Shown here: one piece after another, positions 499-62,223 of the stretch | Numbering within the stretch: position 1 is the stretch's first letter | Layout: each line of letters starts with the position of its first letter | Origin: Chloroflexota bacterium | GTDB lineage: Bacteria > Chloroflexota > UBA11872 > VXOZ01 | DNA: 64,000 nt | NCBI GenBank assembly: GCA_964291655.2 | Contig: OZ219802.1 | Location: forward strand, 1,824,001-1,888,000 | Direction: 5' to 3' | The notes under the pieces: generated by a model | Seen by the model: only the letters and a program-made list of their open reading frames with translations | What the model was told of the DNA's origin: nothing | Databases searched by the model: none | Made by a program: the position numbers and the translations under genes

Positions 499-682
499 TT
501 AGCTCAGTCATTCAGGTGAGAGCCGGGTTTCAACGGCATAAGGTTGCGCGCGGCAGCTTGTTCTCAGACCTTGCTTACTCCCATCTCAACCCTTCATTAG
601 CAAAGAGACGTCTGTATTGCTCTGCTGGGCAGGTGGAAGTGAGTTGGATGGCGAGTTTTTCCCCTCACCCCGGCCCTCTCCC

Positions 683-970
683 TGTACAGACCGGGGACAT
701 AGGTAACAGTTGTTCGGGGACATGGGTTACACATTTTACTGATTGACACCTACGAGAGCATTGGGTTGGTCCGGGTTTGATAAGAGACTGGCGACACAGT
801 GCACTCACTTTCAGCCTGTCAGCTTGTGCCAGAGAAACAAACTGTGTGCATAAGGATATTGAGCGGATCTAACTTTCAAGGCAAGGACATCGCATACTAC
901 GAAAATCCCCTCGTTCTATGGTGTAACCTATGTGCCCGAACATGTGTAACCCATGTACCCGGTCTATACA
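683..970. mobile_element. 288-bp non-autonomous IS481-derived MITE, copy 1
   Basis: TGTACAGACCGGGGACAT...GGTCTATACA ends match the IS481 at 49481-50745; flanked by CTCCC duplication inside a CCCTCTCCC/GGGAGAGGG hairpin; second copy at 54043-54330. Confidence 0.88.
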
Positions 971-1254
971 CTCCCCAGGGAGAGGGAGTCATTTAGGCCC
1001 GGACGTCTTCAGAGAGAGGGAGGGTCTTGCCGTCCCGGCCGTCGCCAGAGAGATAGAGGATCTTGCCATCCCAGTCCTCTTCCCAGGGAGAGGGAGTCAT
1101 TTGGGCCCGGAAGTCTTCAGATAGAGGGAGTATCTTGCCGCCTTTCGTCCGGGGGAATGCAGCAGACCGAACGTCCGCGCATGCCTCGCGGAACGTTACG
1201 GAGGTCGCAGGCAAGGGGGAAGGAGTACCGCAAGGGTCTCCGAGGTGGAGCGGC

Positions 1255-2172
1255 ATGATTGCACTGGTCGTGGACGGCATCATTCTCGGCAGCATCCTCT
1301 CCCTGGGCGCGGTGAGCCTTACCTTGGTGTATGGCATCGTGCGCTTTGCCAACTTCGCCCACGGCGACTTGATGGCCGTAGGCGCGTACGTGGCGTTCTT
1401 CCTCGTGAACACGGTCTTCGCGATGCTGGGTCTGCCGAATGTTACGTTTGGGCCGCTCTCGTTCGGCTTGCCGATGCTGCTTGCACTTCCGATCGCAATG
1501 CTCGTTACAGCGGCTGTTGCCGTGATTGTCGATCGGCTGGTTTTTCGTCCCATGCGGCGGCGGCGCTACGCTACGGTGATGTTCGTTATCGGTTCCTTAG
1601 CGGTCGCCTTTGCCATACGCGCCTTGCTCTTCATCATCTGGGGGCCGGAGTTTCACTTCTTTACGCAAGCCTTGCGGCCGGCCATGCAACTGCCATTCGA
1701 AGTCCGCGTAAAGCCCGATCAAGTTTTCATTCTGTTTGCCTGCCTCTCCATGGTTGTGGGTCTGTATCTCTTCTTGCAGCGCTCGAAGATCGGCCAGGCG
1801 CTCCGCGCCACGGCGGATAACCCGGATTTGGCGCGCATCAGCGGCATCAATACCGAGCACATGATGGTCTGGACCTGGGCTATCGGGGCGGCTATGGCGG
1901 CGACCGCGGGCATTCTGCTCGGCATCGACTCGCAATTGCGCCCGGAGATGGGATGGAATTTGCTGCTGCCGCTCTTTGCCGCAGCCATTCTCGGCGGCAT
2001 CGGCAACCCGTACGGCGCGTTGGTCGGCGGTATGATAATAGGGATCGTGCAGCAGGTGTCGACGGCATTCATCTTGCCCACGTATAAGCCCGCCGTGGCG
2101 TTTGTGATTCTGATATTGGTGCTGCTTATTCGCCCGCGGGGGTTATTCGGTAGCGAGGAACGGGGATTTTAA
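1255..2172 (+). CDS. livH: Branched-chain amino acid ABC transporter permease
   Basis: GIVRFANFAHG motif, LRATADNPDLARISGIN loop, ILGGIGN; start placed at ATG 1255 after GGAG. Confidence 0.92.
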   Translation: MIALVVDGIILGSILSLGAVSLTLVYGIVRFANFAHGDLMAVGAYVAFFLVNTVFAMLGLPNVTFGPLSFGLPMLLALPIAMLVTAAVAVIVDRLVFRPMRRRRYATVMFVIGSLAVAFAIRALLFIIWGPEFHFFTQALRPAMQLPFEVRVKPDQVFILFACLSMVVGLYLFLQRSKIGQALRATADNPDLARISGINTEHMMVWTWAIGAAMAATAGILLGIDSQLRPEMGWNLLLPLFAAAILGGIGNPYGALVGGMIIGIVQQVSTAFILPTYKPAVAFVILILVLLIRPRGLFGSEERGF

Positions 2173-2280
2173 AGGTAGTTGGCGGGTAGCGCAGGTCTAC
2201 AACCTGCGTCTGCATCGATCGTACTTTCGCCGCAACTTGAAGTCGAAATCGCTGAGTACAAGGAGAGCACAAGAAGCAGC

Positions 2281-3270
2281 ATGGCACTCGAGGCAATCCT
2301 GAGTTCCGGCATACTGAATTATCTGGTCGGTTTCCTCATCGTCGCCGGCATCTACGCGCTGTTCACGCTCGGCCTGAACGTGCACTTCGGCGACACCGGT
2401 CTCATCAACTTCGGTGTCGCCGGGTTCTTTGCCATTGGCGCCTACACAGCGGCGTTGGTCACAAAGCCGCTGCCCACAGGTGAACTTGCCCGCTACACCC
2501 AGCAGGCGCTCGGCCTCAACCAGCCGTTTCTCGTGGGAGTCATTGCCGCTGCCGTCGTCTGCGGCATCGTGGCTGTGCTCATAGGGATACCGACTCTCCG
2601 GCTCCGCGAGGACTACCTGGCAATTGCTACCATCGGCATCGCCGAGAGCATCCGGCTGGTTTTTAACAATGAGCAGTGGTTGGCCAATGGTTCGAAAGGA
2701 CTGGTGGGCATCCCGCGACCGCTCTACGACCTGGTGCCGTCCGCGTACTACAACTACATCTATCTCGGCATCGTTGTGCTCGTGGTCGCGTTCGTCGCCA
2801 TACTGCTGGAGCGGATGATCCGCTCACCGTGGGGACGCGTGCTGCGGGCAATCCGGGAAGATGAGGTGGTGGCTGCCGCCTATGGAAAGAACGTGTTCGG
2901 CTTCAAGCTGCAAGCCTTGGTGCTCGGCGCGATGGTAATGGGCGTGGGCGGCGCGCTTTACGCCCACAACGCCGGCACCATCAGTCCCGGCGTGTTTGAG
3001 CCGGTTTTCGGCACGTTCATCGTTTGGGTAATGCTCATACTGGGAGGCAGCGGCAACACGAAAGGCGTCATCCTCGGCGCTTTCGTCTTCTGGGCCATCT
3101 GGGCGGGAACGCAGTTTGCTACCGACGCGCTCGTACCGCCCGCCTTGAACGCGCGCGCCCCGCACTTCCGCTTTCTCCTCATGGAAACGCTGCTCGTGCT
3201 GATGCTGCTCTTCCGTCCCAAAGGCATCCTGGGGGAGGAACGCTTCGTGTCTACTCTGCGGCCGCACTGA
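2281..3270 (+). CDS. livM: Branched-chain amino acid ABC transporter permease
   Basis: GDTGLINFG, LRLREDYLAIATIG, GRVLRAIREDE motifs; start uncertain because the upstream extension runs through a repeat. Confidence 0.9.
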   Translation: MALEAILSSGILNYLVGFLIVAGIYALFTLGLNVHFGDTGLINFGVAGFFAIGAYTAALVTKPLPTGELARYTQQALGLNQPFLVGVIAAAVVCGIVAVLIGIPTLRLREDYLAIATIGIAESIRLVFNNEQWLANGSKGLVGIPRPLYDLVPSAYYNYIYLGIVVLVVAFVAILLERMIRSPWGRVLRAIREDEVVAAAYGKNVFGFKLQALVLGAMVMGVGGALYAHNAGTISPGVFEPVFGTFIVWVMLILGGSGNTKGVILGAFVFWAIWAGTQFATDALVPPALNARAPHFRFLLMETLLVLMLLFRPKGILGEERFVSTLRPH

Positions 3271-3409
3271 CCCAAGTAATCCTATTCCCTCGGTTGTTTG
3301 AGAACAGGATTGCTGCCGATTCTCGTCCGTTCATACTTCGACAAGCTCAGTACGAACGGAGGCGCAGATTAGAGCCACCATATGGAGATAACCCGCAACG
3401 AAGTGTGTG

Positions 3410-4333
3410 CTACGGCGGCGTGCAGCCGGGGCCGCCGCGAATGTTGAGGGTAACTTCGGCATTCTGTTCGGCTGGAAAGCCGGGCAATGGATTCTGGCTG
3501 GCCACCGTGCCGCATTCCCCTGAGTCGTTGGTTAGGGTGATGCCGAGCTTACCGCGAAAACCGCTCGCATTGAGGTCTTCCTGCGCAATGGCAAATTGTT
3601 TGTTGCGTACATCCGGTACGGACACACGGTCAGTCCCTTTGCTCACCGTGAGACGCACGATACTGCCCGGCTCTACTTGCGTGCCACTAACTGGCTCTTG
3701 AGCCAGCACCATACCCGCCGGGACGGTAAAGCTGCCCTGCTCTATTTCCTCGACCGTCACACCCAGCAGTTGCAGTTGCTCGCGAGCGTTCTCTACCGTA
3801 ATGCCCACCACTTCCGGCATTGTCGGATTCTCGGGTCCCTTGCTGATCCTGACCGTAACGATGAAGCCCTCATCTACCTCGGCATTCGCCGCCGGGGATT
3901 GGCTCACAACACGACCGGGAGCGACAGTTTCGTCGAATACTTCCTCTGTCTCGGCGGCTAACCCGTACTGCTCCAGCAAAGCAACCGCCCGCTCCTCAGA
4001 AAGCTGGATGAGATTCGGCACGGCAGTGCGCGGTGTGGGAGAAGGCTGCGCGATTTGGCCTCGCGACGGCGTAGGCACGGTATTGGGTGTCGGGCGTATG
4101 GGTGCCCTGGGCTCGCTGGTGGCGGAAGGCGAGAGAATGGGAACATCGTCAAGCAGCGTTCCCAGGTCCGGCACCAGGCGGAAACCGAGCCACAGCGCGA
4201 TGATCGCCGCGATGAATATGAGCGGGATACCCCAGCGGGATGCCGGTTCCGGCGACCGCCTGTCCGGCCTCTCAGGTCTTCTCGATCCCCCCGATCCAAG
4301 CAATCTCACACTCCTCGCTTTGCCTTGGCGCAA
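3410..4333 (-). CDS. Membrane-anchored PASTA-domain protein (3 PASTA repeats, no kinase domain)
   Basis: One TM helix, Pro-rich linker, repeats VPNLIQL..VVSQSP, MPEVVG..VLAQEP, VPDVRN..VASQNP. Confidence 0.85.
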   Translation of the reverse strand: MRQGKARSVRLLGSGGSRRPERPDRRSPEPASRWGIPLIFIAAIIALWLGFRLVPDLGTLLDDVPILSPSATSEPRAPIRPTPNTVPTPSRGQIAQPSPTPRTAVPNLIQLSEERAVALLEQYGLAAETEEVFDETVAPGRVVSQSPAANAEVDEGFIVTVRISKGPENPTMPEVVGITVENAREQLQLLGVTVEEIEQGSFTVPAGMVLAQEPVSGTQVEPGSIVRLTVSKGTDRVSVPDVRNKQFAIAQEDLNASGFRGKLGITLTNDSGECGTVASQNPLPGFPAEQNAEVTLNIRGGPGCTPP

Positions 4334-4599
4334 TACTGCTTCCGCTATTTATTCTCAATACCGCTCAAACTGGAAAACTCTGTCTCTGAATCATGCCAAG
4401 ACCTGCGCCAGGCCGCCCATCTATCGATCCTGCGACAAGCCTGTGCTGAGCGCTTCGGCAAGCTCAGGACAGGCAGCCTCAGAGCTTGCCACGTCCTCGA
4501 TACAAATTTATCGACACGATAAAGCGTATCGACACGATACGGGGACGTACAAATGCCACCTCGCATGTACGGAAGAATCTCTGCGGGGAGCTCCGCCGC

Positions 4600-7500: not shown

Positions 7501-8118
7501 TTGGGTTTCCAGGACGGCAAGGCGCGGCTCCAGTTCGAGAAGTATGTCGCGCACCCGGTTCATGTTGTCGTGTACACGGAGGATCTTGTTTTCCGCCTCG
7601 TGCTCCTGCATGTAGAGTGAGCGTACACCGGCGGCTTCCTCCAGCAAGACGCGGCGGTCCTCCGGCCGCTGCGCCAGCACTTGATCGACCAGCCCCTGCC
7701 CAATCATCATGCCTTGCCCAATACCGGCGTCCGCGAGCAGTTGCTGAATATCACGCAGACGCACGCGATTGCCATTGAGGAGGTATTCATTCTCACCGGA
7801 GCGGTACGCCCGCCGGGAAATGCTGATTTCGGCGAGTTCCAGGGGGAACGTGCCGTCCTCGTTATCGAAGGTGAGCGTAACCTCGGTCATGCTGCCCTGC
7901 GCACGCCGGGGCGTGCCCGCAAAGACGACGTCTTCGCTCTTGCGCCCCCGTAAGGCCAGCATGCTCTGCTCGCCCAGCGCCCAACGGATCGCGTCTGCGA
8001 GGTTGCTCTTGCCGCTGCCGTTCGGGCCGACTATGGCGGTAATCCCCTGCGGGAAGGCCAGCCTGGTCCTGGTAGGAAACGTCTTGAAGCCGTGAATTTC
8101 AAGCTGTGTAAGGTACAT
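4600..8118 (-). CDS. smc: Chromosome segregation protein SMC
   Basis: GPNGSGKSN Walker A, long coiled coils, LSGGE signature, LLDEADAMLD; follows rnc. Confidence 0.97.
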   Translation of the reverse strand: MYLTQLEIHGFKTFPTRTRLAFPQGITAIVGPNGSGKSNLADAIRWALGEQSMLALRGRKSEDVVFAGTPRRAQGSMTEVTLTFDNEDGTFPLELAEISISRRAYRSGENEYLLNGNRVRLRDIQQLLADAGIGQGMMIGQGLVDQVLAQRPEDRRVLLEEAAGVRSLYMQEHEAENKILRVHDNMNRVRDILLELEPRLAVLETQAKEAQRAEVLQQELAQALHAWYAAQLAQLVAEEQAATQDLERIQAVLTTLDTRITGQDLERKQLEQAMQEHQQGMHRLEARVGGLRSRLNELARRQAVQQERQTHLRRSAEEAESRETDLVARHEAAIARLPEQEAVLAEATEALTALQGEWHAVRGGIARKEEARQEAESALQQLRQEGVAVTTRLSSLTAAINDGKRQREAVLTRSAEAAEQLQHVRKQQRDRAASLATLQKQADTLQAEEAVRLAAKEKAESALASVEQELHRLEKERQRPLRHRADLEGRTEALRAILAGAAADEDSKPAAIAAKVGVTLLPPIAETGLPADIATAIEAALPSEAYFAESVRDAEKLVEHLVSVAAANATVLAVELLHSEARSVPNHPGVIGCAADLIALPPESAALEPLLAAILVVKDIAAIPTFAARHPWPLIVSVDGVVYSNGVYRYAQASVQRGQQQAQYRTLSARLAEVRRQCEELEEKESALRARQEQLRGEERAAAKAHAQRADGARTANAALQRHTHEYDELARQCAWWEQVERETRAQQDELEDAIASREREAPLAVAAKERLTREIGERERIGNAQQQEVETQRATVNSLQTQLAVQQQRKEHLTRAIAQLRAEQQGLLRERSTLAATRLEREEALRALQTEVVSTAETSQQTAVQLEEADTQRKKQRAALEQLGVRHGALVRAKAELENQRTARTVDHSRAEQVLAGIQQRREDTVVRWLSDEPEVEPVPKPAAEPLEELQSSVTSLRNRLRRIGPVNPLAVEEFSLLAERATFLREQIADLEAAGEDLDEVKRQLRRTIRQDFTATFQRVAEEFRAMVKVLFDGGDADLTLTDPQNPDQTGIEITVRLPGKRRQALSLLSGGERALVALALLFALLSARATPLCLLDEADAMLDETNIGRFCRLLREYGRETQFLVITHNRGTMEMADALFGVSMSEEGVSQVLSLHLEELRDQMLSPVG

Positions 8119-8123
8119 AGGAA

Positions 8124-9055: not shown

Positions 9056-9079
9056 GCGGGGGACAAGCCCCCGCGCTAC
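9056..9079. repeat. GTAG-type REP-like palindrome GTAGCGCGGGGGCTTGTCCCCCGC (representative copy)
   Basis: Intergenic copies also near 10921, 11895, 16831, 24688, 31608, 31971, 38691, 42050, 45395, 51790-52003, 56503, 58948. Confidence 0.85.
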
Positions 9080-9389
9080 TCCTGAATTACAGTGCTTGGC
9101 GTGGGATTCGCATATGCAGCAATCAAGGCCAGTGCGGCTAAACAGTGGAGTTTTGGCTGGATTGGCGCCGTATCCCCCTCACTCCGACCTTCTCCCCAGG
9201 GAGAGGGAGTGGCAAACTTCCCTCAGGATCTAGTTTCGCAATTGTCTCTGCATGGGAGTATTCTCATCCCTGCCCTCTCTCTGGAAAAGTGACTCTGCTC
9301 GCCCGTCGGGCCGGGTTGCGCGACAGTCTCCGTGGGAGCAATTGCCTCTTCGTTCGCAGCCAAACCGGTTCGTTAGCCTTGTGCCGTGC

Positions 9390-13842: not shown

Positions 13843-14095
13843 TGTAAGTGTTGACTAATTCGTTGACAGAATCTTCTATTCACTGGAAAGCATCGACCGT
13901 GCATGTCATTCCGAGCGCAGCGAGGAATCTAGGGTTCACGTCGAGCGTGTTTGTTAGGATCAGCATCTTAGATTCCGCGCTCAGAGCGACACTGCGCTGC
14001 GCTTCGTTCGGAATGACATGTGTGTGGGGCATGCAGGGCGAATAGTCTTCACGTTCCTAACATCAAATCTGTCAACGAATTACCTGACATTTGCA
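13843..14095. mobile_element. 253-bp TG...CA MITE inserted in a CGTC-type repeat, copy 1
   Basis: Imperfect TIRs containing TAATTCGTTGACAGA/TCTGTCAACGAATTA; ATTCC duplication at 13838-13842 and 14096-14100. Confidence 0.8.
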
Positions 14096-31661: not shown

Positions 31662-31914
31662 TGTATGTGTTGAGCAATTCGCTGACAGAAGCTTCTACTC
31701 ACTGGACTGTGTCGAATGTACATGTCATTCCGAGCGCAGCGAGGAATCTAGGGTCCATGCTTCACACAGTACACTGGCTTCAGCACTCTAGATTCCGCGC
31801 TAAGAGCGACACTTGGCTTCGCTCCGTTCGGAATGACATGTATGCAGGCAAGCGCAGAGTTTTGCTCCCGTAATTCTTCTATCAAATCTGTCAACGAATT
31901 ACCTGACTCTTACA
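31662..31914. mobile_element. 253-bp TGT...ACA MITE in CGTC-type repeat, copy 2
   Basis: Same TIRs and length as 13843-14095; ATTCC duplication at 31657-31661 and 31915-31919. Confidence 0.82.
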
Positions 31915-32794: not shown

Positions 32795-33067
32795 AGTGCT
32801 GCCCTACTTGGGGTTCTTGCGTGCCGCCTCGGCGGTCTTCCGCCGCTTGTTGCTTCCTACTACTATAAACTACTCGCGGTCACTTTATGTGCTGTGCCGT
32901 GGGCTTGGTCTGTTATGTTTGCATGCTTCTCCGGTCGAGACCTTTGTGCAACTTTGCGAGACAGTTTGATGTTGGCCGAGCCGGTATTTGTCCCCTTACC
33001 CCAGCCCTCTCCCCCAGGAGACCTTTGCAAAACCCCACTTTCAAGCAGGGGCACTCCCTCTCCTGGG

Positions 33068-34711
33068 GAGGGTGTCTCAAAAATAGATCTACTGGATATA
33101 TACTGGTGTGAAGAGAAGCAAGGTGAGGTTGTGGGATAGTTTGTAGAGAGGTAGTGACGATGCCGTTGAGACCGTTTAGTCGTGAACAGGCCTGGCTGTT
33201 GCCGCCGACGCTGGACGAACTGATCCCGGACGACCATCCTGTCAGGTTTGCGGCAGCGTTCGTGGACAGCCTCGATGCTGCGGCCTGGGAGGCGATGGAG
33301 ATTGACCTGCAAGGCGATCCGCGTGGCGCCGGGGCCTACCATCCGCGCGCGCTGCTGGGCGTATGGGTCTACGGCTTCATGACCGGCGTGCGCTCGAGCC
33401 GCAAGCTGGAGGCAGCCTGCCGGGATCAGGTACCGTACCTGTGGCTGGTGGGGATGCAGCAGCCGGACCACAACACGCTGTGGCGCTTCTACAAGGCGCA
33501 CCGCGACCGGATGCGGACGCTGCTCAAGCGCACGGTGCGCACGGCGGTGCGAGCCGGCCTGGTGGAGTTGGCAATCCAGGCGGTGGACGGCACCAGGATC
33601 GCGGCCAACGCCGGGACGCGGCATACCCACGACGCGCAGGGGCTGCAGCGGCTGTTGTCCCGCACCGAGCAAGCGATCGCGGACCTGGAGGCGCAGAACG
33701 CCACGGGGGGCGACGCGCCGCCAGCGACTTTGCCGCAGGAACTTGCCGATGCCCAGGCCCTGCGGCGGCGGGTGGACGACGCGCTCGCCCGCGTCGCGGC
33801 TGAGGACGGGCCGCGCTACACGAACCTGACTGATGCGGACGCGGCCCTGCTCAAGACTGGCATGGGTGGCTTCATCACCGGCTACAACGCCCAGGCGCTG
33901 GTCTCCCCTCTTGCGTCCCCGGACGAGGGCGCAGGGGGGAGGTTGATCACAGCCGTGGACGTGAGCGCCAGTGCCGACGACCATCCCCACCTGGCGCCGC
34001 TGATCGAGGCGGCGCAGGAGAACATCGACGCCGCGCGGGACGTGGTGACCGTTGCGGACGCCGGCTACCATTCGGGGGCCAACCTCGCCACGTGCCACGC
34101 CGGCGGCCACACGGTATTGATGCCCACGACCCACGAGCGCAGACGCCGCAACCCCTACCATAAAGACCACTTCACCTACCGTCCAGAGACCGACACCTAC
34201 CTGTGTCCCCAGCAAAAGGTGCTCACCTACACGCACCGCTTGACCCACAGCAACGGCTACCGGGTCAAGCGGTACCAAGCCAACGGCCGGGACTGCAGAA
34301 CCTGTCCGGCCTTCGGCGTCTGCACCTCCTCCCAGAGGGGCCGCTCCATAAAGATCAGCGCCTACGAGCCAATACTGCAACGGCACAGGCAGTTGATGGC
34401 CACCGCGCCTGCCAAGCAGGTGTACCGCCGCCGGAGTACCATCGTCGAGCCGGTCTTTGGCCTGCTCAAGGAGTGGCACAGTGCCAGGCGCTTCCTGCTC
34501 AGAGGCCGCAGCCACGTGACGTCCGAATGGCACCTGCTGGCCACCGCGTTCAATCTCAAGAGCCTCCACGCCCTGTGGCGGTCTGGGTGTAGTCCAGCGT
34601 CGCCCCGGGGACGAGTCTCTCACTGGCACCGTCTTGTTCATACCACCCGCCATCTGTCTGTCCTTCTCACCCCATTCACCGTGCCCCGCACCAAAATATT
34701 GAGACAGCCTC
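33068..34711 (+). mobile_element. IS1182-family insertion sequence, copy A (1644 bp)
   Basis: IRs GAGGGTGTCTCAA / TTGAGACAGCCTC; TGGG duplication; three near-identical copies in window. Confidence 0.92.
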
Positions 34712-34839
34712 TGGGGGAGAGGGTTGGGGTGAGGGGGTCTCTTGTTACAATGGCCCTTTACGCTGGGCAGTGTCAAGACGTATCAGGGCAGATTCGGTGT
34801 GCACATGGAGAGACTTCAGGAAATTCACCCTCACCCTAG
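33154..34839 (+). CDS. IS1182-family transposase
   Basis: SSRKLE, PDHNTLWRF, AVDGTRI, ADAGY, VEPVFG motifs. Confidence 0.93.
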   Translation: MTMPLRPFSREQAWLLPPTLDELIPDDHPVRFAAAFVDSLDAAAWEAMEIDLQGDPRGAGAYHPRALLGVWVYGFMTGVRSSRKLEAACRDQVPYLWLVGMQQPDHNTLWRFYKAHRDRMRTLLKRTVRTAVRAGLVELAIQAVDGTRIAANAGTRHTHDAQGLQRLLSRTEQAIADLEAQNATGGDAPPATLPQELADAQALRRRVDDALARVAAEDGPRYTNLTDADAALLKTGMGGFITGYNAQALVSPLASPDEGAGGRLITAVDVSASADDHPHLAPLIEAAQENIDAARDVVTVADAGYHSGANLATCHAGGHTVLMPTTHERRRRNPYHKDHFTYRPETDTYLCPQQKVLTYTHRLTHSNGYRVKRYQANGRDCRTCPAFGVCTSSQRGRSIKISAYEPILQRHRQLMATAPAKQVYRRRSTIVEPVFGLLKEWHSARRFLLRGRSHVTSEWHLLATAFNLKSLHALWRSGCSPASPRGRVSHWHRLVHTTRHLSVLLTPFTVPRTKILRQPLGERVGVRGSLVTMALYAGQCQDVSGQIRCAHGETSGNSPSP

Positions 34840-35100
34840 CCCTCTCCCGTCGAGGGAGAGGGAACGTTCTCGCTTCCGCTTGGGTTTCGCAAAGGTCTCC
34901 CCAGGGAGAGGGAGTGGCTTTGGTCTGGTGGAAGCTATGCAAAGTGAAGGAGGTTTTTGCCTGGAGGCCCGATTTTAGCAAAGTTCTTCCAAGGAAGAGA
35001 CTATGAGTTTCGCGCTCTGTCCGCGTTTTTCCAGGGCCTTCCCAGTGTGATGGGGCTAGTCGCTTGACCTGGCCAGGTTATGCTAAGGTCTGCAAGCGGT

Positions 35101-36670: not shown

Positions 36671-36882
36671 GTGCACCTTCCTCTCTGTCGCCAACTATCG
36701 CTAACGAATGAATCTGTCATCGGGTGTCTCCGGTGTGGGAAACCTTTACACAACTCAAGCCGGTAAGTGAGAAGATCCCCTCACCCTAACCCTCTCCCCC
36801 AGGAGAGGGAACCGGAGCCGCTCCATGTTTGCTCGGTTCCGTACTCTGCACTCTCTCCTGGGAGAGAGGAAACCGGAGCGGC

Positions 36883-38481
36883 TCAATGTTTGCTTGGTTC
36901 CGTACTCTGCTCCCTCTCCTGGGGAGGCTGTCTCAATATTTTGGTGCGGGGCACGGTGAATGGGGTGAGAAGGACAGACAGATGGCGGGTGGTATGAACA
37001 AGACGGTGCCAGTGAGAGACTCGTCCCCGGGGCGACGCTGGACTACACCCAGACCGCCACAGGGCGTGGAGGCTCTTGAGATTGAACGCGGTGGCCAGCA
37101 GGTGCCATTCGGACGTCACGTGGCTGCGGCCTCTGAGCAGGAAGCGCCTGGCACTGTGCCACTCCTTGAGCAGGCCAAAGACCGGCTCGACGATGGTACT
37201 CCGGCGGCGGTACACCTGCTTGGCAGGCGCGGTGGCCATCAACTGCCTGTGCCGTTGCAGTATTGGCTCGTAGGCGCTGATCTTTATGGAGCGGCCCCTC
37301 TGGGAGGAGGTGCAGACGCCGAAGGCCGGACAGGTTCTGCAGTCCCGGCCGTTGGCTTGGTACCGCTTGACCCGGTAGCCGTTGCTGTGGGTCAAGCGGT
37401 GCGTGTAGGTGAGCACCTTTTGCTGGGGACACAGGTAGGTGTCGGTCTCTGGACGGTAGGTGAAGTGGTCTTTATGGTAGGGGTTGCGGCGTCTGCGCTC
37501 GTGGGTCGTGGGCATCAATACCGTGTGGCCGCCGGCGTGGCACGTGGCGAGGTTGGCCCCCGAATGGTAGCCGGCGTCCGCAACGGTCACCACGTCCCGC
37601 GCGGCGTCGATGTTCTCCTGCGCCGCCTCGATCAGCGGCGCCAGGTGGGGATGGTCGTCGGCACTGGCGCTCACGTCCACGGCTGTGATCAACCTCCCCC
37701 CTGCGCCCTCGTCCGGGGACGCAAGAGGGGAGACCAGCGCCTGGGCGTTGTAGCCGGTGATGAAGCCACCCATGCCAGTCTTGAGCAGGGCCGCGTCCGC
37801 ATCAGTCAGGTTCGTGTAGCGCGGCCCGTCCTCAGCCGCGACGCGGGCGAGCGCGTCGTCCACCCGCCGCCGCAGGGCCTGGGCATCGGCAAGTTCCTGC
37901 GGCAAAGTCGCTGGCGGCGCGTCGCCCCCCGTGGCGTTCTGCGCCTCCAGGTCCGCGATCGCTTGCTCGGTGCGGGACAACAGCCGCTGCAGCCCCTGCG
38001 CGTCGTGGGTATGCCGCGTCCCGGCGTTGGCCGCGATCCTGGTGCCGTCCACCGCCTGGATTGCCAACTCCACCAGGCCGGCTCGCACCGCCGTGCGCAC
38101 CGTGCGCTTGAGCAGCGTCCGCATCCGGTCGCGGTGCGCCTTGTAGAAGCGCCACAGCGTGTTGTGGTCCGGCTGCTGCATCCCCACCAGCCACAGGTAC
38201 GGTACCTGATCCCGGCAGGCTGCCTCCAGCTTGCGGCTCGAGCGCACGCCGGTCATGAAGCCGTAGACCCATACGCCCAGCAGCGCGCGCGGATGGTAGG
38301 CCCCGGCGCCACGCGGATCGCCTTGCAGGTCAATCTCCATCGCCTCCCAGGCCGCAGCATCGAGGCTGTCCACGAACGCTGCCGCAAACCTGACAGGATG
38401 GTCGTCCGGGATCAGTTCGTCCAGCGTCGGCGGCAACAGCCAGGCCTGTTCACGACTAAACGGTCTCAACGGCATCGTCAC
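36883..38481 (-). CDS. IS1182-family transposase
   Basis: Identical to copy A apart from the C-terminal tail. Confidence 0.93.
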   Translation of the reverse strand: MTMPLRPFSREQAWLLPPTLDELIPDDHPVRFAAAFVDSLDAAAWEAMEIDLQGDPRGAGAYHPRALLGVWVYGFMTGVRSSRKLEAACRDQVPYLWLVGMQQPDHNTLWRFYKAHRDRMRTLLKRTVRTAVRAGLVELAIQAVDGTRIAANAGTRHTHDAQGLQRLLSRTEQAIADLEAQNATGGDAPPATLPQELADAQALRRRVDDALARVAAEDGPRYTNLTDADAALLKTGMGGFITGYNAQALVSPLASPDEGAGGRLITAVDVSASADDHPHLAPLIEAAQENIDAARDVVTVADAGYHSGANLATCHAGGHTVLMPTTHERRRRNPYHKDHFTYRPETDTYLCPQQKVLTYTHRLTHSNGYRVKRYQANGRDCRTCPAFGVCTSSQRGRSIKISAYEPILQRHRQLMATAPAKQVYRRRSTIVEPVFGLLKEWHSARRFLLRGRSHVTSEWHLLATAFNLKSLHALWRSGCSPASPRGRVSHWHRLVHTTRHLSVLLTPFTVPRTKILRQPPQEREQSTEPSKH

Positions 38482-38567
38482 TACCTCTCTACAAACTATC
38501 CCACCACCTCACCTTGCTTCTCTTCACACCAGTATATATCCAGTAGATCTATTTTTGAGACACCCTC
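36924..38567 (-). mobile_element. IS1182-family insertion sequence, copy B
   Basis: Same IRs, 1644 bp, sits in the loop of a CCCTCTCC/GGAGAGGG hairpin. Confidence 0.92.
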
Positions 38568-39305
38568 TTGGGGAGAGGGCTGGGGTGAGGGCGAATCTTC
38601 ACCGTTCCAGCCCAATTCCGCGTGCTCGTTAGAGTTGCGCAAAGCTCTCCTGAGGGAAAGAGGGTTTTCCTTGCTGCCACAAGGCAAGCCGTAGCGCGGG
38701 GGACAAACCCTCCGCTGCCCCGTGCTCCGACACGGGACAGGCTTGGAGTCAAGGGTAAACACCGTCTTGGCCTAGTCATCGGCAACGGCCACATCATCAT
38801 AAGGTTCCTCTCTGTCGCGCCGCTGCAGCCTGTTCCCCCAGCACAACACCTACCAGTCCTCCCCTGTTCTCGTGCACTGTGGTTCCCTCGACACCACCGT
38901 TCACCCTTCGACAGGCCTGTACTGAGCTTGTCGAAGTGCTCAGGGCGAACGGTGAGCCACGCCATCGGCACCTGCCAGACCTCCCGTGTTCGCGTCCCCT
39001 GCACGGCGTTTTTCCCAGTATAGTAAATACTTTGTAAAATTACAACCCCTTTTACCCCTTAATTTTTACATTATTTTTGAATATAACTCTATGCAGCCCC
39101 AAAATCACGGGAAACACACTTCCCACTGCCGTCTACCCACTCCCGAAACGCCTGGCAAAGCACGCGCTCCGCGGCGATGTATGCACGCCACACCCTGAGC
39201 GCGCGGCTCTATGGAGAGGAAAAGAGCACGGCCGGGGGTACACAGAAAACCGCACTTTCAACCAAAGCACACGTGCCTTGCCATGACGCAAAGGAAAACA
39301 CCCAG

Positions 39306-41476: not shown

Positions 41477-41509
41477 TGTGGGATTTGGGTCCTGTCCCAA
41501 TCAACCACG

Positions 41510-41935
41510 GCAGATTGGCGACCCCCGGGCGCAGGTTGCAAACCTGCGCTACCGGTCCGTCACTCCGGCGAAAGCCGGAGTCCAGTCAGAGGCGGGACGG
41601 AAGGATCGTAGCGCGGAGGCATGCCTCCCGCTTGGAGACCGGGGACGCAGGTTGCAAACCTGCGCTACCGGTCCGTCACTCCGGCGAAAGCCGGAGTCCA
41701 GGGGGGAGGCGGGACGGAAGGATCGTAGCGCGGGGGCATGCCTCCCGCTTGGCGACCGGGGACGCAGGTTGCAAACCTGCGCTACCGGTCCGTCACTCCG
41801 GCGAAAGCCGGAGTCCAGGGGGAGGCGGGGTGGAAGGATCGTAGCGCGGGGGCATGCCTCCCGCTTGGCGACCCCGGACGCAGGTTGCAGACCAGCGCTA
41901 CCGGTTCGTCACTCCGGCGAAAGCCGGAGTCCAGA
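41510..41935. repeat. Tandem BIME-like array, ~116-bp period, ~3.5 units
   Basis: GCAGGTTGCA anchors at 41531, 41647, 41764, 41880; each unit combines three palindrome types. Confidence 0.88.
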
Positions 41936-42213
41936 GGGACGGCCGACGTGAAGCGATAACGCTTGTTCCTTGAATGAGAGGCACTGTTGAAGCAGAGAAG
42001 ATGGATTCCGGCTTGCGCCGGAATGACGGAACTGGCGGCTCCTCGGGGAGTAGCGCGGGGGCTTGTCCCCCGCAGTGGGTCGGGGGTGTGTAGAACGAAG
42101 AAAAGATGGATTCCGGCTTTCGCCGGAATGACGGGCAAGAGCGACTTTCGTAAGTAGACAGAATTCGTACGTGAATCGAATTTGTACATGAATCGAAATA
42201 GAAAGCGAGCACG

Positions 42214-43452: not shown

Positions 43453-43846
43453 AAGGATGCGGGAGCGGCCTACCGAACTTAAGTTTGGCAGCTTACTGCT
43501 CGATTTAAGGGAATCTTATCCGTCACTCCCGCGAAAGCGGGAGTCCATCGGGTCTGCACGGATGGATTGCCGCTCCGTTTCGAATGCGTGGCAACGTTCC
43601 CGGGCAATTGATGTGCCAGGCAGCCGCGGACGCAGGTTGCAAACCTGCGCTACCGGTCCGTCACTCCGGCGAATGCCGGAGTCCAGGGAGGCTGGGTGGA
43701 TGGATTCCTACATTTGCGAAAATGGCGAATCGCAAGAAGATCCCATAGCGTCACAGTCGTGCAAAGTGGACAGGACCGTACCGCAGAGAATCCCCCTCAC
43801 CCCGGCCCTTTCCCTCGAGGGAGAAGGTGGTTCCGAGCGGATTCAG

Positions 43847-44428: not shown

Positions 44429-44569
44429 GCTGACCATTGTACCAATTGGCAGGATCACGGCCACGGACGAGAGCAGAGTTGTGATCTCTTCCCTCATTGA
44501 CAATCGCGTGCAAACGGGAATCCGTCTTCGTCGCCCGCCACGGCCAGGAAGAGGAACAACGCCAAGTTC

Positions 44570-45420
44570 GGAGCGGGGGACAGGCCCCCGCACTAGGGGG
44601 AATGGGTTTCCGCCAGGTCGGCGGATGCAGGTTGCAATCCTGCGCTACCGATCGTGTCGGTGCGTCATTCCCGCGAAAGGCTTGCCCGATACGAGATACG
44701 GGAGTGGAAATTTCTTCCGTTGTTCCCGCGAAAGCACGCCACCGAGCGGGGTCGTGGAAGTCATCCTCGTTGCTTCCCAGCTACTCTCCCGGAGTGGGGG
44801 ACAATCCCCCACGCTACGGGGAATGGTGCACCGCCAGGTCGGCGGACGCAGGTTACAAACCTGCGCTACCGATCGTGCCGGTCCGTCGTTCCCGCGAAAG
44901 GCTTGCCCGATACGAGATACGGGTGGGGGATTTGCTTCCGTTATTCCCGCGAAAGCACGCCGCCGAGCGGGGTCGTGGAATTCATCTTCGTTGCTTCCCG
45001 GCTACTCTCCCGGAGCAGGGGACAATCCCCCACGCTACGGGGAATGGGGCACCGCCAGGTCGGCGGACGCAGGTTACAAACCTGCGCTACCGATCGTGCC
45101 GGTCCGTCATTCCCGCGAATGCACGCCACCGAGCGGGGTCGTGGAATTCATCTTCGTTGCTTCCCGGCTACTCTCCCGGAGCGGGGGACAAGCCCCCATG
45201 CTACGGGGAATGGGGCACCGCCAGGTCGGCGGACGCAGGTTACAAACCTGCGCTACCGATCATGCCGGTCCGTCATTCTCGCGAAAGGCTTGCCCGATAC
45301 GAGATACGGGAGTGGAAATTTCTTCCGTTATTCCCGCGAAAGCTCGCCCCCTGCGGGGGCGCGGAATCCATCTTGCCGTGTGCAGCGGCTCGGAGCGGGG
45401 GACAAGCCCCCGCGCTACGA
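44570..45420. repeat. Tandem mosaic array of REP-like palindromes
   Basis: Repeated CGCCAGGTCGGCGGACGCAGGTTACAAACCTGCGCTACCGATC..TTCCCGCGAA..GGGGACAA.CCCC units. Confidence 0.85.
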
Positions 45421-45493: not shown

Positions 45494-47137
45494 GAGGGTG
45501 TCTCAAAAATAGATCTACTGGATATATACTGGTGTGAAGAGAAGCAAGGTGAGGTGGTGGGATAGTTTGTAGAGAGGTAGTGACGATGCCGTTGAGACCG
45601 TTTAGTCGTGAACAGGCCTGGCTGTTGCCGCCGACGCTGGACGAACTGATCCCGGACGACCATCCTGTCAGGTTTGCGGCAGCGTTCGTGGACAGCCTCG
45701 ATGCTGCGGCCTGGGAGGCGATGGAGATTGACCTGCAAGGCGATCCGCGTGGCGCCGGGGCCTACCATCCGCGCGCGCTGCTGGGCGTATGGGTCTACGG
45801 CTTCATGACCGGCGTGCGCTCGAGCCGCAAGCTGGAGGCAGCCTGCCGGGATCAGGTACCGTACCTGTGGCTGGTGGGGATGCAGCAGCCGGACCACAAC
45901 ACGCTGTGGCGCTTCTACAAGGCGCACCGCGACCGGATGCGGACGCTGCTCAAGCGCACGGTGCGCACGGCGGTGCGAGCCGGCCTGGTGGAGTTGGCAA
46001 TCCAGGCGGTGGACGGCACCAGGATCGCGGCCAACGCCGGGACGCGGCATACCCACGACGCGCAGGGGCTGCAGCGGCTGTTGTCCCGCACCGAGCAAGC
46101 GATCGCGGACCTGGAGGCGCAGAACGCCACGGGGGGCGACGCGCCGCCAGCGACTTTGCCGCAGGAACTTGCCGATGCCCAGGCCCTGCGGCGGCGGGTG
46201 GACGACGCGCTCGCCCGCGTCGCGGCTGAGGACGGGCCGCGCTACACGAACCTGACTGATGCGGACGCGGCCCTGCTCAAGACTGGCATGGGTGGCTTCA
46301 TCACCGGCTACAACGCCCAGGCGCTGGTCTCCCCTCTTGCGTCCCCGGACGAGGGCGCAGGGGGGAGGTTGATCACAGCCGTGGACGTGAGCGCCAGTGC
46401 CGACGACCATCCCCACCTGGCGCCGCTGATCGAGGCGGCGCAGGAGAACATCGACGCCGCGCGGGACGTGGTGACCGTTGCGGACGCCGGCTACCATTCG
46501 GGGGCCAACCTCGCCACGTGCCACGCCGGCGGCCACACGGTATTGATGCCCACGACCCACGAGCGCAGACGCCGCAACCCCTACCATAAAGACCACTTCA
46601 CCTACCGTCCAGAGACCGACACCTACCTGTGTCCCCAGCAAAAGGTGCTCACCTACACGCACCGCTTGACCCACAGCAACGGCTACCGGGTCAAGCGGTA
46701 CCAAGCCAACGGCCGGGACTGCAGAACCTGTCCGGCCTTCGGCGTCTGCACCTCCTCCCAGAGGGGCCGCTCCATAAAGATCAGCGCCTACGAGCCAATA
46801 CTGCAACGGCACAGGCAGTTGATGGCCACCGCGCCTGCCAAGCAGGTGTACCGCCGCCGGAGTACCATCGTCGAGCCGGTCTTTGGCCTGCTCAAGGAGT
46901 GGCACAGTGCCAGGCGCTTCCTGCTCAGAGGCCGCAGCCACGTGACGTCCGAATGGCACCTGCTGGCCACCGCGTTCAATCTCAAGAGCCTCCACGCCCT
47001 GTGGCGGTCTGGGTGTAGTCCAGCGTCGCCCCGGGGACGAGTCTCTCACTGGCACCGTCTTGTTCATACCACCCGCCATCTGTCTGTCCTTCTCACCCCA
47101 TTCACCGTGCCCCGCACCAAAATATTGAGACAGCCTC
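45494..47137 (+). mobile_element. IS1182-family insertion sequence, copy C
   Basis: Same IRs, 1644 bp, in hairpin loop. Confidence 0.92.
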
Positions 47138-47187
47138 CGGGGGAGAGGGTCGGGGTGAGGGGAAGCGACCCAGACAAAGCCGAATGA
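45580..47187 (+). CDS. IS1182-family transposase
   Basis: Identical to copies A and B apart from the C-terminal tail. Confidence 0.93.
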   Translation: MTMPLRPFSREQAWLLPPTLDELIPDDHPVRFAAAFVDSLDAAAWEAMEIDLQGDPRGAGAYHPRALLGVWVYGFMTGVRSSRKLEAACRDQVPYLWLVGMQQPDHNTLWRFYKAHRDRMRTLLKRTVRTAVRAGLVELAIQAVDGTRIAANAGTRHTHDAQGLQRLLSRTEQAIADLEAQNATGGDAPPATLPQELADAQALRRRVDDALARVAAEDGPRYTNLTDADAALLKTGMGGFITGYNAQALVSPLASPDEGAGGRLITAVDVSASADDHPHLAPLIEAAQENIDAARDVVTVADAGYHSGANLATCHAGGHTVLMPTTHERRRRNPYHKDHFTYRPETDTYLCPQQKVLTYTHRLTHSNGYRVKRYQANGRDCRTCPAFGVCTSSQRGRSIKISAYEPILQRHRQLMATAPAKQVYRRRSTIVEPVFGLLKEWHSARRFLLRGRSHVTSEWHLLATAFNLKSLHALWRSGCSPASPRGRVSHWHRLVHTTRHLSVLLTPFTVPRTKILRQPPGERVGVRGSDPDKAE

Positions 47188-49234: not shown

Positions 49235-49480
49235 GGTGTTTGCGCGCCAGGAGGCGATTTGAGGGCTGGATCGACGCCAGTTTCCCCTCACACCGGCCCT
49301 CTTCCCAGGGAAAGAGAGTCTTTTGCGCCCGTCGGCCTGGGTTGTGCGGAGGCCTCCCTAGGGAGAGGGAGGCCTCTTTCGGCTGGCGTTCCAGGACGAG
49401 TTGAGGTCTCCCCAGGGAGAGGGAGCAGAAAGCGAAACCGAGTGAATGTGAAGCCGCTCCGGTTCCCTCTCCTGGGGGAG

Positions 49481-59083: not shown

Positions 59084-60220
59084 CTATGCCTGCTTCAGTC
59101 CTGAATGGGACAGCAGCCCGCCTAAGGCACTCAGGAACGTGCGCACGTTATCCGGTTGCGCCACGTAGCCCATCAGGCCGACGCGCCAGATCTGGCCCAT
59201 CAGTGGGCCTAAGCCGCCGGCAATCTCGATGCCGTGCTCGGCCAAGAGGGCTTTGCGCACATCCAGGTCTTCAACGCCGTCGGGGATTCTGACGGTCGTC
59301 AGCATTGGCAGGCGGTGGCCTGCTGCCGCGACCAGCGAGAGGCCCATGCCTTCCAAGCCGGCCTTCAGCGCGTCGCCGCTCTGCTGATGGCGCGCAAAGC
59401 GGTTTTCGATGCCTTCCTCGTCCATCAGGTCGAGAGCAGCTTTCAGGCCGTAGACCAGCGTACTGGAGCATGTGTGGTGATAGAAGCCCTGCGCCGACCA
59501 GTACTGGTGCAGCGCCTCGACATCGTGGTACCACGTCGGCAGCGCCGCACTGCGCTCGGCCAGGCGCTCGCGGGCGCGGGCGCTGAACGTCAGCGGCGCG
59601 AGGCCCGAAATTGTGCCGACGCACTTCTGGCTGGCGCTATAGGCGGCGTCCACACCCCACGCATCTACCTGGACCGGCAGGCCGCCCAGCGTGGTTACCG
59701 CGTCCATGAGCACCAGTGCACCGTGCGCGTGGGCGGCATCCGCGATCTCCTGAATTGGCTGGCGGACGCCCGTCGACGTTTCGCCATGCACGATGCCGAC
59801 CACCTTGACCGCAGGGTGTGCTTGCAGAGCGTTCTTCACGTCGGCAGCGTCAATGGGCTCCCCCCACGGCGCGGTGACCTCCACTACCTCCGCGCCGAAG
59901 CGCTTGGCGAAGTCGGCCATGCGCGTGCCGAAGAAGCCGTTCACGCCCACGAGCATGGTATCGCCCGGCTCGATGAGATTTGCCAGGCACGACTCCATGC
60001 CGGAGAAACCGGTACCGGTGACAGCGAGTGTGAGTTCGTTCTCCGTGCCGAAGAGCCGCCGCAACTGCCCCGCCGTCTCCACGAGAAGCTCTTGGAATAC
60101 CGGATCGAGGTGTCCCAGCACCGGCTGTTGCAGCGCCGCCATGATCTGCGGATGCACGTTGGCCGGTCCCGGACCGAGCAGCCGCCGCTGTGGGAGGGTT
60201 CTTTGCGCCATGTTTGTCAT
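59084..60220 (-). CDS. Alanine-glyoxylate / serine-pyruvate aminotransferase (class V)
   Basis: LLGPGP, HGETSTG, SASQK PLP lysine, WRVGLMG. Confidence 0.92.
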   Translation of the reverse strand: MTNMAQRTLPQRRLLGPGPANVHPQIMAALQQPVLGHLDPVFQELLVETAGQLRRLFGTENELTLAVTGTGFSGMESCLANLIEPGDTMLVGVNGFFGTRMADFAKRFGAEVVEVTAPWGEPIDAADVKNALQAHPAVKVVGIVHGETSTGVRQPIQEIADAAHAHGALVLMDAVTTLGGLPVQVDAWGVDAAYSASQKCVGTISGLAPLTFSARARERLAERSAALPTWYHDVEALHQYWSAQGFYHHTCSSTLVYGLKAALDLMDEEGIENRFARHQQSGDALKAGLEGMGLSLVAAAGHRLPMLTTVRIPDGVEDLDVRKALLAEHGIEIAGGLGPLMGQIWRVGLMGYVAQPDNVRTFLSALGGLLSHSGLKQA

Positions 60221-60391
60221 TGAGTTTCGTCCTTCCGCTTATTCAGACTGAGGCTGATTGCGATGGTCTGCACCTTTGCTATAGTATCCTAAATCCCTCT
60301 CTCTGCTCCTGGGGAATTACGGGCGAACTATCCTGAAATGCCCCAAAGCGGCGCAACCCCATTGAGCTCCCCTTACGCCTCTCCCTGCAAG

Positions 60392-60575
60392 GAGACCTTT
60401 GCGAAACCTAAGGGGAAACGAGAGCGTTCCCTCTCCCTCGACGGGAGAGGGCTAGGGTGAGGGTGAATCTCCTGAAATCTCTCCATATGCACACCGATTC
60501 TGCCCTGATACGTATTGACACTGCACAGCGTAAAGGGCCATTGTCACAAAAGACCCCCTCACCCCAACCCTCTCC
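60392..60575 (-). mobile_element. Partial copy of the GAGACCTTTGC MITE
   Basis: Reverse complement closely matches 34716-34899; other end absent. Confidence 0.72.
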
Positions 60576-60579
60576 TGGG

Positions 60580-60792
60580 GAGGCCGTCTCATAATTCCGC
60601 TACAGAGCACGGTAGGTAAAATGAGGAACGCAGCCAAGTGGCGGATTGTATTGACAGAGTGGTATAAGTGATGGAACCGTAGCTTGAAAGCTTGATGCGA
60701 TGCCCAGAAAGCAACTAAAGTCTATCTCAAGACCTCGCTTAGCCTCTCTGCACGGCAGTGTACCTCGGAATAGGCAATTATGAGACAGCCTC
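60580..60792. mobile_element. 213-bp MITE with IS1182-like TIRs
   Basis: GAGGCCGTCTCATAATT ... AATTATGAGACAGCCTC, in hairpin loop, no transposase. Confidence 0.78.
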
Positions 60793-60923
60793 CTTGGGAG
60801 AGGGTCGGGCCGAGGGGATCCTCACTGCTCTCAATTCCACACTCCCAGGCGGCGATTACTCCATCTCCCAGGCAGCGATTACTCGCCCTTCCCAGGCTCC
60901 GAATACCCCCTCTCCTTGGGGAG

Positions 60924-62188
60924 TGTATAGACCGGGTACATGGGTTACACATGTTCGGGCACATAGGTTACACCTTAAGGCATGGAGATTCTTACAGATG
61001 GAGGAGCGCCATGCCTTGGAAGGAGAGTACGGTTGTGTCTGAACGCAAGGAGTTCATTGCACTGGCACTGATGGAAGGGGCCAACATCAGCGAGCTGTGT
61101 CGCCGTCTGGAGATCAGTCGCAAGACGGCGTACAAGACGCTGGAGCGGTATGCGAAAGCTGGCGAAGACGGTTTGCACGACCGGTCGCGGCGGCCGCACA
61201 CGTGTCCGCACCGCACGCGCCCGGCGCTGGAGGAACGCATCATCGCGCTGCGTCTGGCGCATCCTACGAAGGGCGCCCATGTGCTGCGCAGAATGCTGCA
61301 GGACCAGGGGCATACCGACGTGCCGGCCAAGAGCACCATCAATGCCATTCTCAAACGCCATGGGCTCATCGATCCAGCCCAGAGCGCCAAGCACACGCCC
61401 CATGTGCGCTTCGAACGACCCCAGCCCAACGAGCTGTGGCAGATGGACTTCAAGGGACATTTCGTCATGCAGCAGAACCGCTGTCATCCTCTCACCCTCC
61501 TAGACGATCACTCCCGCTTCAACCTCGGGTTACAGGCCTGTGCCAACGAGCGGGGAGAGACGGTCCAAGACCGCCTCACCGCTGTCTTTCGCCGCTACGG
61601 CTTGCCCCAGGCCATGCTCATGGACAACGGCTCTCCCTGGGGTAACGACAGTGCCCAGCCCTTCACGCCCCTCACCGTCTGGCTCATGCAGCTGGGCATC
61701 AACGTCCTGCACAGCCGACCCTACCATCCCCAGACACTCGGCAAGCTGGAACGCTTCCACCGCTCCCTCAAGAGCGAACTGCTGGCAGGGACCACCTTTA
61801 CCGACCTGGACCATTGCCAGCGCGCCTTTGACACCTGGCGCCACTTCTACAACTTGGAACGCCCACACCATGCCCTCGATCTCGACACTCCCATTACCAG
61901 ATACACGCCTAGTCCTCGCCCTTTCCCAGAGACCTTGCCTGCCCTCGCCTACGCTCCCGACGACCGCGTACGCAGCGTCGATGTCTCCGGCCGCATCTCC
62001 TTCCAAGGCAGACGGCTCCGTGTGGGCAGGGCCTTCACGCACAAGCAAGTCGCCCTGCGACCCACCCGAACGGACGGTGTCTGGGACGTGTACTTCTCGA
62101 TCCAAAGAGTAAAAACCATAGACCTCAGAGCACAAAATGTGTAACCTATCTACCCGAACATCTGTTACCTATGTCCCCGGTCTGTACA
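60924..62188 (+). mobile_element. IS481-family insertion sequence, copy 2 (1265 bp)
   Basis: TGT...ACA ends, GGGGAG duplication. Confidence 0.92.
61011..62144 (+). CDS. IS481-family transposase
   Basis: As copy 1; GGAGGAG RBS before ATG 61011. Confidence 0.93.
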   Translation: MPWKESTVVSERKEFIALALMEGANISELCRRLEISRKTAYKTLERYAKAGEDGLHDRSRRPHTCPHRTRPALEERIIALRLAHPTKGAHVLRRMLQDQGHTDVPAKSTINAILKRHGLIDPAQSAKHTPHVRFERPQPNELWQMDFKGHFVMQQNRCHPLTLLDDHSRFNLGLQACANERGETVQDRLTAVFRRYGLPQAMLMDNGSPWGNDSAQPFTPLTVWLMQLGINVLHSRPYHPQTLGKLERFHRSLKSELLAGTTFTDLDHCQRAFDTWRHFYNLERPHHALDLDTPITRYTPSPRPFPETLPALAYAPDDRVRSVDVSGRISFQGRRLRVGRAFTHKQVALRPTRTDGVWDVYFSIQRVKTIDLRAQNV

Positions 62189-62223
62189 GGGGAGAGGGCC
62201 GGGGTGAGGGGATCCTGTCCCTA

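Follow-up and report, generated by a model that had tools for sequence, protein, structure and literature searches.

A boxC-like hairpin repeat as a landing site for IS1182, IS481 and small mobile elements in a Chloroflexota genome

Several insertion sequences (ISs) are known to insert into repetitive extragenic palindromes (REPs). REP targeting has been described for IS1397, ISKpn1, IS621, ISPsy8, ISPa11, ISPpu9/10, ISRm19, and ISRm22; the families concerned are IS3, IS110, IS4, IS256, and IS5, and two families occur in the REPs of S. meliloti (Tobes and Pareja 2006, PMC1525189). In the IS1182 family, IS1272 targets stem-loops without a sequence consensus, deletes the stem-loop and leaves no duplication, while duplication of the loop was drawn as an alternative path (Wan et al., pathway c; PMC5678879, PMC4923244). 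Repeat targeting by several IS families and hairpin targeting in the IS1182 family are, hence, already established. Here, a stretch of 64,000 nucleotides from a Chloroflexota bacterium (contig OZ219802.1, positions 1,824,001 to 1,888,000), called the window below, is described, in which IS1182, IS481, and miniature inverted-repeat transposable elements (MITEs) are inserted in another repeat, boxC.

The boxC/PIT/TM(ECO) motif (TM, triplex motif) consists of a C-rich stem, a loop, a G-rich stem, a 3-nt linker, and a second G-rich tract (Holder et al. 2015, PMC4666352). According to the accessible part of that paper, E. coli sequences of this kind form an intrastrand triplex in vitro but leave no footprint in vivo, and the duplex form is found when the complementary strand is present. 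TM loci were described there as more variable, and the motif as unassociated with transposons.

The elements of the window were located by self-comparison and end mapping. An earlier note on this DNA, made from the sequence alone, had proposed that one hairpin repeat receives all of them, and the coordinates and geometry it gave were confirmed. All nine named elements (three IS1182, two IS481, two IS481-ended MITEs, one IS1182-ended MITE, and one MITE with GAGACC ends) are positioned at the boxC loop. The occupied and empty copies are the following:

662..986, + strand: boxC split by a 288-bp IS481-ended MITE (683-970); duplication CTCCC at the long-arm stem/loop junction.
9176..9207, + strand: empty boxC, slightly degenerate.
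32993..34912, + strand: boxC split by the GAGACC-ended MITE (33018-34899); duplication CCCAG; the MITE holds two boxC hairpins of its own.
33068..34711, + strand: IS1182 copy 1, inserted at the loop of the first of the two MITE-borne boxC hairpins; the duplication TGGG equals the loop.
34828..34862, + strand: empty boxC, cargo of the GAGACC MITE; agrees with the strict published TM pattern.
36778..36923, + strand: tandem boxC array, with a full empty copy (36778-36809), a degenerate one (36851-36868), and one broken from 36912.
36924..38567, - strand: IS1182 copy 2, with 4 nt between each end and an arm; mismatched flanks CCAA/CCCA.
43794..43827, + strand: empty degenerate boxC.
45494..47137, + strand: IS1182 copy 3; mismatched flanks CTGG/CGGG; gene order on both sides kept in a related genome (locus L025, see below).
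49285..49316, + strand: empty degenerate boxC, absent from the earlier list.
49481..50745, - strand: IS481 copy in boxC; duplication GGGAG.
54043..54330, + strand: second 288-bp IS481-ended MITE in boxC; GGGGA/GGGCA, one mismatch.
60392..60579, - strand: partial second GAGACC MITE with one end, an empty boxC (60429-60463), and a long arm (60556-60575); the other end is lost.
60580..60792, + strand: 213-bp IS1182-ended MITE flanked on either side by a long arm, each from a different boxC copy; TGGG/CTTG, no duplication.
60924..62188, + strand: IS481 copy in boxC; duplication GGGGAG.

The three IS1182 copies are 1644 bp long each, with one single-nucleotide polymorphism across all three, and both IS481 copies measure 1265 bp. 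The IS1182 transposase, with DUF772 and DDE domains, scored 364.8 bits against NCBIfam NF033551 (cut-off 270), and the IS481 transposase 290.2 bits against NF033577 (cut-off 224). The IS481 elements show the TGT..ACA ends and 5-6-bp duplications characteristic of their family. Terminal inverted repeats are present in IS1182, and one of its three copies is flanked by a duplication; this TGGG is the only true target duplication among the four IS1182-type elements.

The position of the ends within the repeat is constant. The eight located IS1182-type ends all lie 4 nt from the CCCTCTCC arm, i.e., they abut the loop as had been claimed. The claim that IS481 duplicates part of the stem was likewise borne out, since the four IS481-type duplications, of 5, 5, 6, and 5 bases with one mismatch in the last, fall where the stem meets the loop, on the side of the long arm and whichever way the element is oriented. 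Positions 34678-34911 match 60613-60378 at 88%, marking two copies of the GAGACC MITE. Besides the empty boxC, this MITE has another internal hairpin, which holds both the left end of the 213-bp MITE and copy 1 of IS1182.

The repeat itself, with its C-rich arm, loop, G-rich arm, and third mirror tract, shares the architecture and nearly the sequence of the boxC/PIT/TM intrastrand triplex motif (PMC4666352), the resemblance suspected in the earlier note; as described for boxC, it is intergenic and variable among related genomes. The strict published pattern (9-nt stems, 3-6-nt first loop) is matched only by the two intact MITE-borne copies (34828, 60429). All eight reconstructed targets deviate from it by a shorter stem or loop and fit a relaxed pattern. 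The window repeat is therefore classed as a boxC-like variant. Once eight elements are removed, 17 non-coding boxC hairpins make up 342 of 15,835 non-coding bp (2.2%). Relative to this share, the elements are strongly enriched at boxC, the chance of nine out of nine being about 1e-15. With the 59 other hairpin repeats as reference, the value becomes about 1e-6, a post hoc figure that includes nested events and covers the named families only.

Whether boxC belongs to the host was judged with the Chloroflexota metagenome-assembled genome OZ242329 (L025). In this close relative, boxC is missing from the orthologues of three occupied spacers (45.5, 49.5, and 54.0 kb), and boxC with IS1182 is present where the window holds GTAG-type REPs only. 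Hence, boxC is not a stable host feature and turns over quickly. The word "host" in the earlier note was, thus, too strong, all the more as some copies lie inside MITEs: the empty copies at 9176, 36778, and 43794 were confirmed, and those at 34828 and 60429 turned out to be GAGACC MITE cargo.

Flanks of related elements show the same association in other genomes. One GTDB scan and an alignment of 26 proteins were used to collect IS1182 relatives; the best 80 of 525 gave 79 loci, nearly all from Chloroflexota, with transposase identities to the window IS1182 of up to 90%. Five loci (L062, L075, L076, L078, L085), whose flanks were short or whose ends were undefined, were left out. The loci are not independent, as several copies come from the same genome. 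Among the close loci (at least 65% identity, n = 32, 10 genomes), 30 carry a boxC arm, on both sides in 24 cases, on one side in six, and on neither in two. Among the distant loci (n = 42, 15 genomes), none does; 24 lie in GTAG-type REPs (the label for L091 being doubtful) and 18 in other sequence. In a genome-level tree (11 rows, four genomes being without a usable protein), the window and the boxC-using genomes fall into a single clade, with support 96/89. As a clearer control in the opposite direction, GTAG REPs at 56.4-57.1 kb of the window are unused though identical to the target of a sister IS1182, which is occupied at 6/6 loci. Relatives of the window IS1182 on plasmids reach only about 30% identity.

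The loop is duplicated at 12 of the 28 IS1182 sites with boxC on both sides. The centre of the duplication lies at most 1 nt from a strong hairpin axis at 11/15 boxC and 10/17 GTAG sites, compared with 14 of 3000 random positions. At the sites with a duplication, the 8-bp arms are separated by 3 to 8 nt, a spread that speaks for recognition of the tip rather than for a fixed-distance rule. Among unduplicated sites, two long arms are joined at 4 of 16 (matched sites, 0/12). Mismatched flanks may stem from local deletion or recombination between neighbouring hairpins, and one-base mismatches may be sequencing or assembly errors. Long-range exchange is an unlikely source at window copy 3 and at the mismatched copy of L025 itself, as gene order is conserved across both. 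Swapping flanks among the window copies of IS1182 did not restore duplications.

For IS481, evidence outside the window comes from fewer sites. In the fetched flanks, related MITEs lie in boxC at L032 (5-bp duplication on the long-arm side) and L031 (mismatched flanks), and a full IS481 (70%) abuts a boxC-like variant at L077. In E. coli, boxC was found at two of the three distinct chromosomal IS481 sites examined. In AP042570, an 85%-identical IS481 between ycjD and fabI splits boxC with the duplication GCACCT on the short-arm side, and strain W3110 has the intact empty allele of this site. The left end of ISEc19 (yagA) abuts a broken boxC; this is one end only, the right end being truncated. 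In E. coli K-12, this end is 40 bp from motif no. 3 of Holder et al. (MG1655 282,101-282,136; PMC4666352). No empty allele of the site was found; among the 60 records compared, none had the flank without the element. In a quick tree (13 rows, midpoint root), the window IS481 groups with Dehalococcoidia IS481 and not with ISEc19; hence, boxC use may have arisen twice or been lost in between.

Together, these data show that boxC targeting is real and recurs in different genomes of two phyla; boxC is a true insertion target. The element positions, the duplications, one empty allele in E. coli, and the preference across the clade are direct observations. The mechanism we consider probable is that the DDE transposases of these IS1182 and IS481 lineages recognise the hairpin tip, with a lineage-specific preference for a repeat. 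For the transposases and the MITEs they move, the recognised structure would be the tip of an inverted repeat that is most likely extruded, either as a hairpin or as a cruciform. IS1182 would make a 4-5-bp staggered cut centred on the loop, which would then be duplicated, and IS481 would cut in the loop and in the C-rich stem, within its last 4-5 bases. The preferred repeat would be boxC in this lineage, GTAG REPs in the sister IS1182, a rhizobial palindrome in ISRm20, and GTCATTCC in a 253-bp MITE. Given such a preference for boxC, unrelated families would converge where the repeat is common. The mismatched flanks may have arisen later, by recombination or deletion involving adjacent hairpins, GAGACC MITEs carrying boxC copies may seed new targets, and landing there might benefit host or element. 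The safe-harbour idea of the earlier note, in which targeting would lower the fitness cost of transposition, is a possible reason for its existence. A triplex might also take part in targeting.

Several observations weigh against this mechanism. The duplication is lacking at 16 of the 28 two-sided boxC sites, whose original targets, therefore, are not reconstructable. None of the 11 duplicated sites in other sequence is centred on a strong hairpin axis, and some IS1182 lineages seem to need no hairpin. Moreover, boxC is scarce in most distant genomes by loose pattern counts, so repeat choice may reflect availability and the two are partly confounded; the GTAG availability counts, also from a loose pattern, are indicative only. 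The IS481 support beyond the window amounts to a handful of sites. IS481 relatives occur outside boxC at the third E. coli chromosomal site and at 5/5 distinct enterobacterial plasmid sites, several of all these sites being loose C-rich/G-rich hairpins. At nine alpha-, beta-, and gammaproteobacterial IS481 loci, boxC was found at none; three ISRm20-like loci duplicate the loop CTCGT of the rhizobial palindrome, and the six other relatives also lie outside boxC. Lastly, the accessible part of PMC4666352 reports no stable triplex in vivo.

Alternatively, a transposase dimer could read the CCCTCTCC/GGAGAGGG arms in duplex DNA with no hairpin formed. This would suit the strong lineage-specific preference, with other stable hairpins nearby left empty, and the terminal sequence of IS1182: the left end reads GAGG, with G as fourth terminal base, at 30/32 close loci and 0/42 distant ones. 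The shift to boxC coincides with this change to a base matching the arm, which counts as a single evolutionary event. Nonetheless, such a reading of the arms is unlikely, as the cut remains at most 1 nt off the axis despite the 3-8-nt spacer and related transposases strike the tips of hairpins unrelated in sequence. As for the termini in general, GAGG, complementary to CCTC in the arm, is found in the boxC-preferring clade (L014-L045), and GAGC or GAGT in L046-L092.

It is less probable still that a feature particular to boxC, such as the intrastrand triplex, a stalled fork or nick, or a bound host protein, attracts unrelated transposases. At least four end types meet at boxC, the third tract is present at 9/9 occupied window sites, and IS481 cuts on the third-tract side in 4/4 window elements and at L032; in addition, triplex formation by the motif was seen in vitro, and the loci it marks are unstable (PMC4666352). 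However, hand counts of the third tract against occupancy gave 9/15 versus 0/4 (p = 0.09), and the E. coli IS481 cut on the opposite side. IS1182 sits in boxC hairpins without a third tract at L016 and L017, so this tract is not required for IS1182. The triplex left no footprint in vivo in the published experiments (PMC4666352).

DUF559 genes may be linked with boxC, and in E. coli the DUF559 nuclease-like gene ycjD (L093 2075-2440, L103 2622-2975) adjoins the IS481-occupied boxC, making it a candidate boxC-associated enzyme. Neither the window nor any of the 79 loci gave a hit to YcjD/DUF559, which speaks against a boxC-specific factor of this type.

That the hairpin halves are parts of the elements moving along with them, or footprints left behind, is very improbable. 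The absence of boxC from the three covered OZ242329 spacers, its presence there with IS1182 where the window has none, and the internal boxC of the GAGACC MITEs would agree with it. Near-identical copies, however, have different flanks, the long arm lies on either side independent of element orientation, duplications fall inside the hairpin, and the flank is common to unrelated elements. The intact allele of W3110 already contradicts it; the arms are the target, and this one of the two outcomes that the earlier note had named as refuting did not occur. Random insertion with purifying selection leaving only dispensable DNA occupied can be practically dismissed, for although none of the nine elements lies inside an annotated gene, as selection alone would give, 98% of the non-coding DNA and 59 other hairpins hold none of them and each insertion point is exact to the nucleotide.

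The preferred mechanism remains hairpin-tip recognition, combined with a repeat preference particular to each lineage. A broader version can be put forward tentatively and is rather doubtful: boxC/TM, a repeat occurring in more than one phylum, would be a docking structure shared by unrelated DDE transposases, possibly via a triplex or stalled-fork state, and would spread partly inside boxC-landing MITEs. Part of the instability reported for boxC loci would then be due to ISs, which target the repeat and cause deletions between adjacent copies, and lineages of IS1182 and IS481 would adjust to the hairpin repeat carried by their host.

The idea of a single landing site did not hold. Another MITE family of the window, with TGT..ACA-type ends and overlooked in the earlier note, uses GTCATTCC hairpins:

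13843..14095, no strand assigned: counter-example MITE with TGT..ACA-type ends in a GTCATTCC..GGAATC hairpin; duplication ATTCC.
31662..31914, no strand assigned: second copy, same GTCATTCC..GGAATC target; duplication ATTCC.
53030..53258, no strand assigned: third copy, between two GTCATTC-type arms; flanks mismatched.

This 253-bp family also occurs at L021 (19302-19575) and L025 (17647-17887), and three of the five elements have a 5-bp duplication. GAGACC ends use several hairpin types. Among 70 pattern matches, the neighbour is boxC in 20, a looser boxC in four, a GTCATTCC hairpin in 10, and other sequence in 36, some of the last group being due to chance. Ends of a fourth type, GCTGAC.., adjoin boxC or its looser form in 10/14 matches. 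Small elements of the type GCTGAC(A/G)GGGGTAGG lie at boxC-like loops with 7-9-bp duplications at L042 (17206-17496), L044, L045, L081 (6291-7378), and L086 (18076-18284). No autonomous partner transposase for the GAGACC, 253-bp, or GCTGAC-ended MITEs was found in the window or the fetched loci. The left end of ISNm1106 (IS5 family), GAGACCTTTGCAAAA, equals the GAGACC MITE end, the aligned element being presumably ISNm1106, which was reported next to Neisseria repeats. As a lead from the end sequence, an IS5 (IS1106-like) origin of this MITE may be considered. The convergence of several unrelated families is, therefore, firm for IS1182 and IS481, whereas the family of the GAGACC MITE is deduced from its ends. 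As IS5 and IS1182 are related DDE_Tnp_1-type families, two unrelated lineages are demonstrated and not more.

Further observations concern the elements and their surroundings. Degenerate single GAGACC-like ends adjoin boxC-like arms at 38649 (- strand), 49399, and 53980 and are probably relics of older insertions. The IS1182 transposase frames (33160-34839, 45586-47187, 36883-38481) have no stop codon within the element, so that the C-terminus differs per copy and is supplied by the flank; the same was seen in OZ242272 (9/9 loci) and three other genomes. In the IS481 copies at 49481-50745 and 60924-62188, the 14 differences between the two all fall within 79 bp (element positions 312-390), which suggests a recombination patch from a third IS481 variant. 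The window has a G+C content of 61% and contains housekeeping genes and a phage-like head/tail gene cluster (35101-57654) with a sigma factor, LexA-like repressor, terminase, portal, HicB-like protein, protease-capsid fusion, adaptor, and tail-like genes. Ten genes of this cluster are found in the same order with 75-91% identity in OZ242329 (L025 1-11900); the terminase-to-tail part is syntenic, and the intervening spacers are crowded with host repeats. The cluster is possibly a domesticated prophage or gene transfer agent. Tandem arrays of mixed GTAG-type and GTCATTCC-type hairpins with 95-221-bp units lie at 41500-42200, 44490-45420, 51740-52065, and 56360-57200. An Rfam scan of the window gave no match at gathering score.

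The boxC repeat has so far been without an assigned role, and the finding provides one that can be tested in E. coli with IS481 and the empty ycjD-fabI site. Natural examples of loop-duplicating insertion are supplied as well. Sister IS1182 transposases, 53-65% identical, prefer different repeats, which opens a route to mapping the determinant of target choice by domain swaps; this determinant bears on integration tools that avoid genes. In the literature searched, which covered few subscription journals and no ISfinder entries, no report of boxC as an IS target or of IS481 as a repeat targeter was found, nor did the accessible parts of PMC2267715, PMC3733652, and 10.1101/2024.03.21.586147 contain either. 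Within this literature, IS481 joins the repeat-targeting families.

Compared with the REP-targeting ISs (PMC1525189), the window likewise shows a palindromic extragenic repeat broken at a fixed position. The association is of type 1, in which all copies break the repeat at one position, for 3/3 IS1182 and 2/2 IS481 in the window and for 30/32 close IS1182 relatives. Mismatched duplications are shared with ISRm22. In contrast, the repeat is boxC, IS1182 is outside the five families listed in the accessible part of that study, IS481 is absent from its main text, and nested MITEs carrying the target are a feature of the window, unlike the REP systems described there. The ISEc19 (yagA)/ISRm20 group resembles the window IS481 in its TGT..ACA ends with internal repeats and in 5-6-bp duplications, often at hairpins, at about 50% transposase identity. 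Unlike the strict 9-bp pattern of PMC4666352, reported from proteobacterial genomes, the window copies come from Chloroflexota, mostly have an 8-bp stem and a 4-nt loop, and serve as transposon targets. Finally, the replacement of the stem-loop known from IS1272 (PMC5678879, PMC4923244) differs from what was observed here: the window lineage keeps both arms, duplicates the loop (12 sites), and prefers one repeat.

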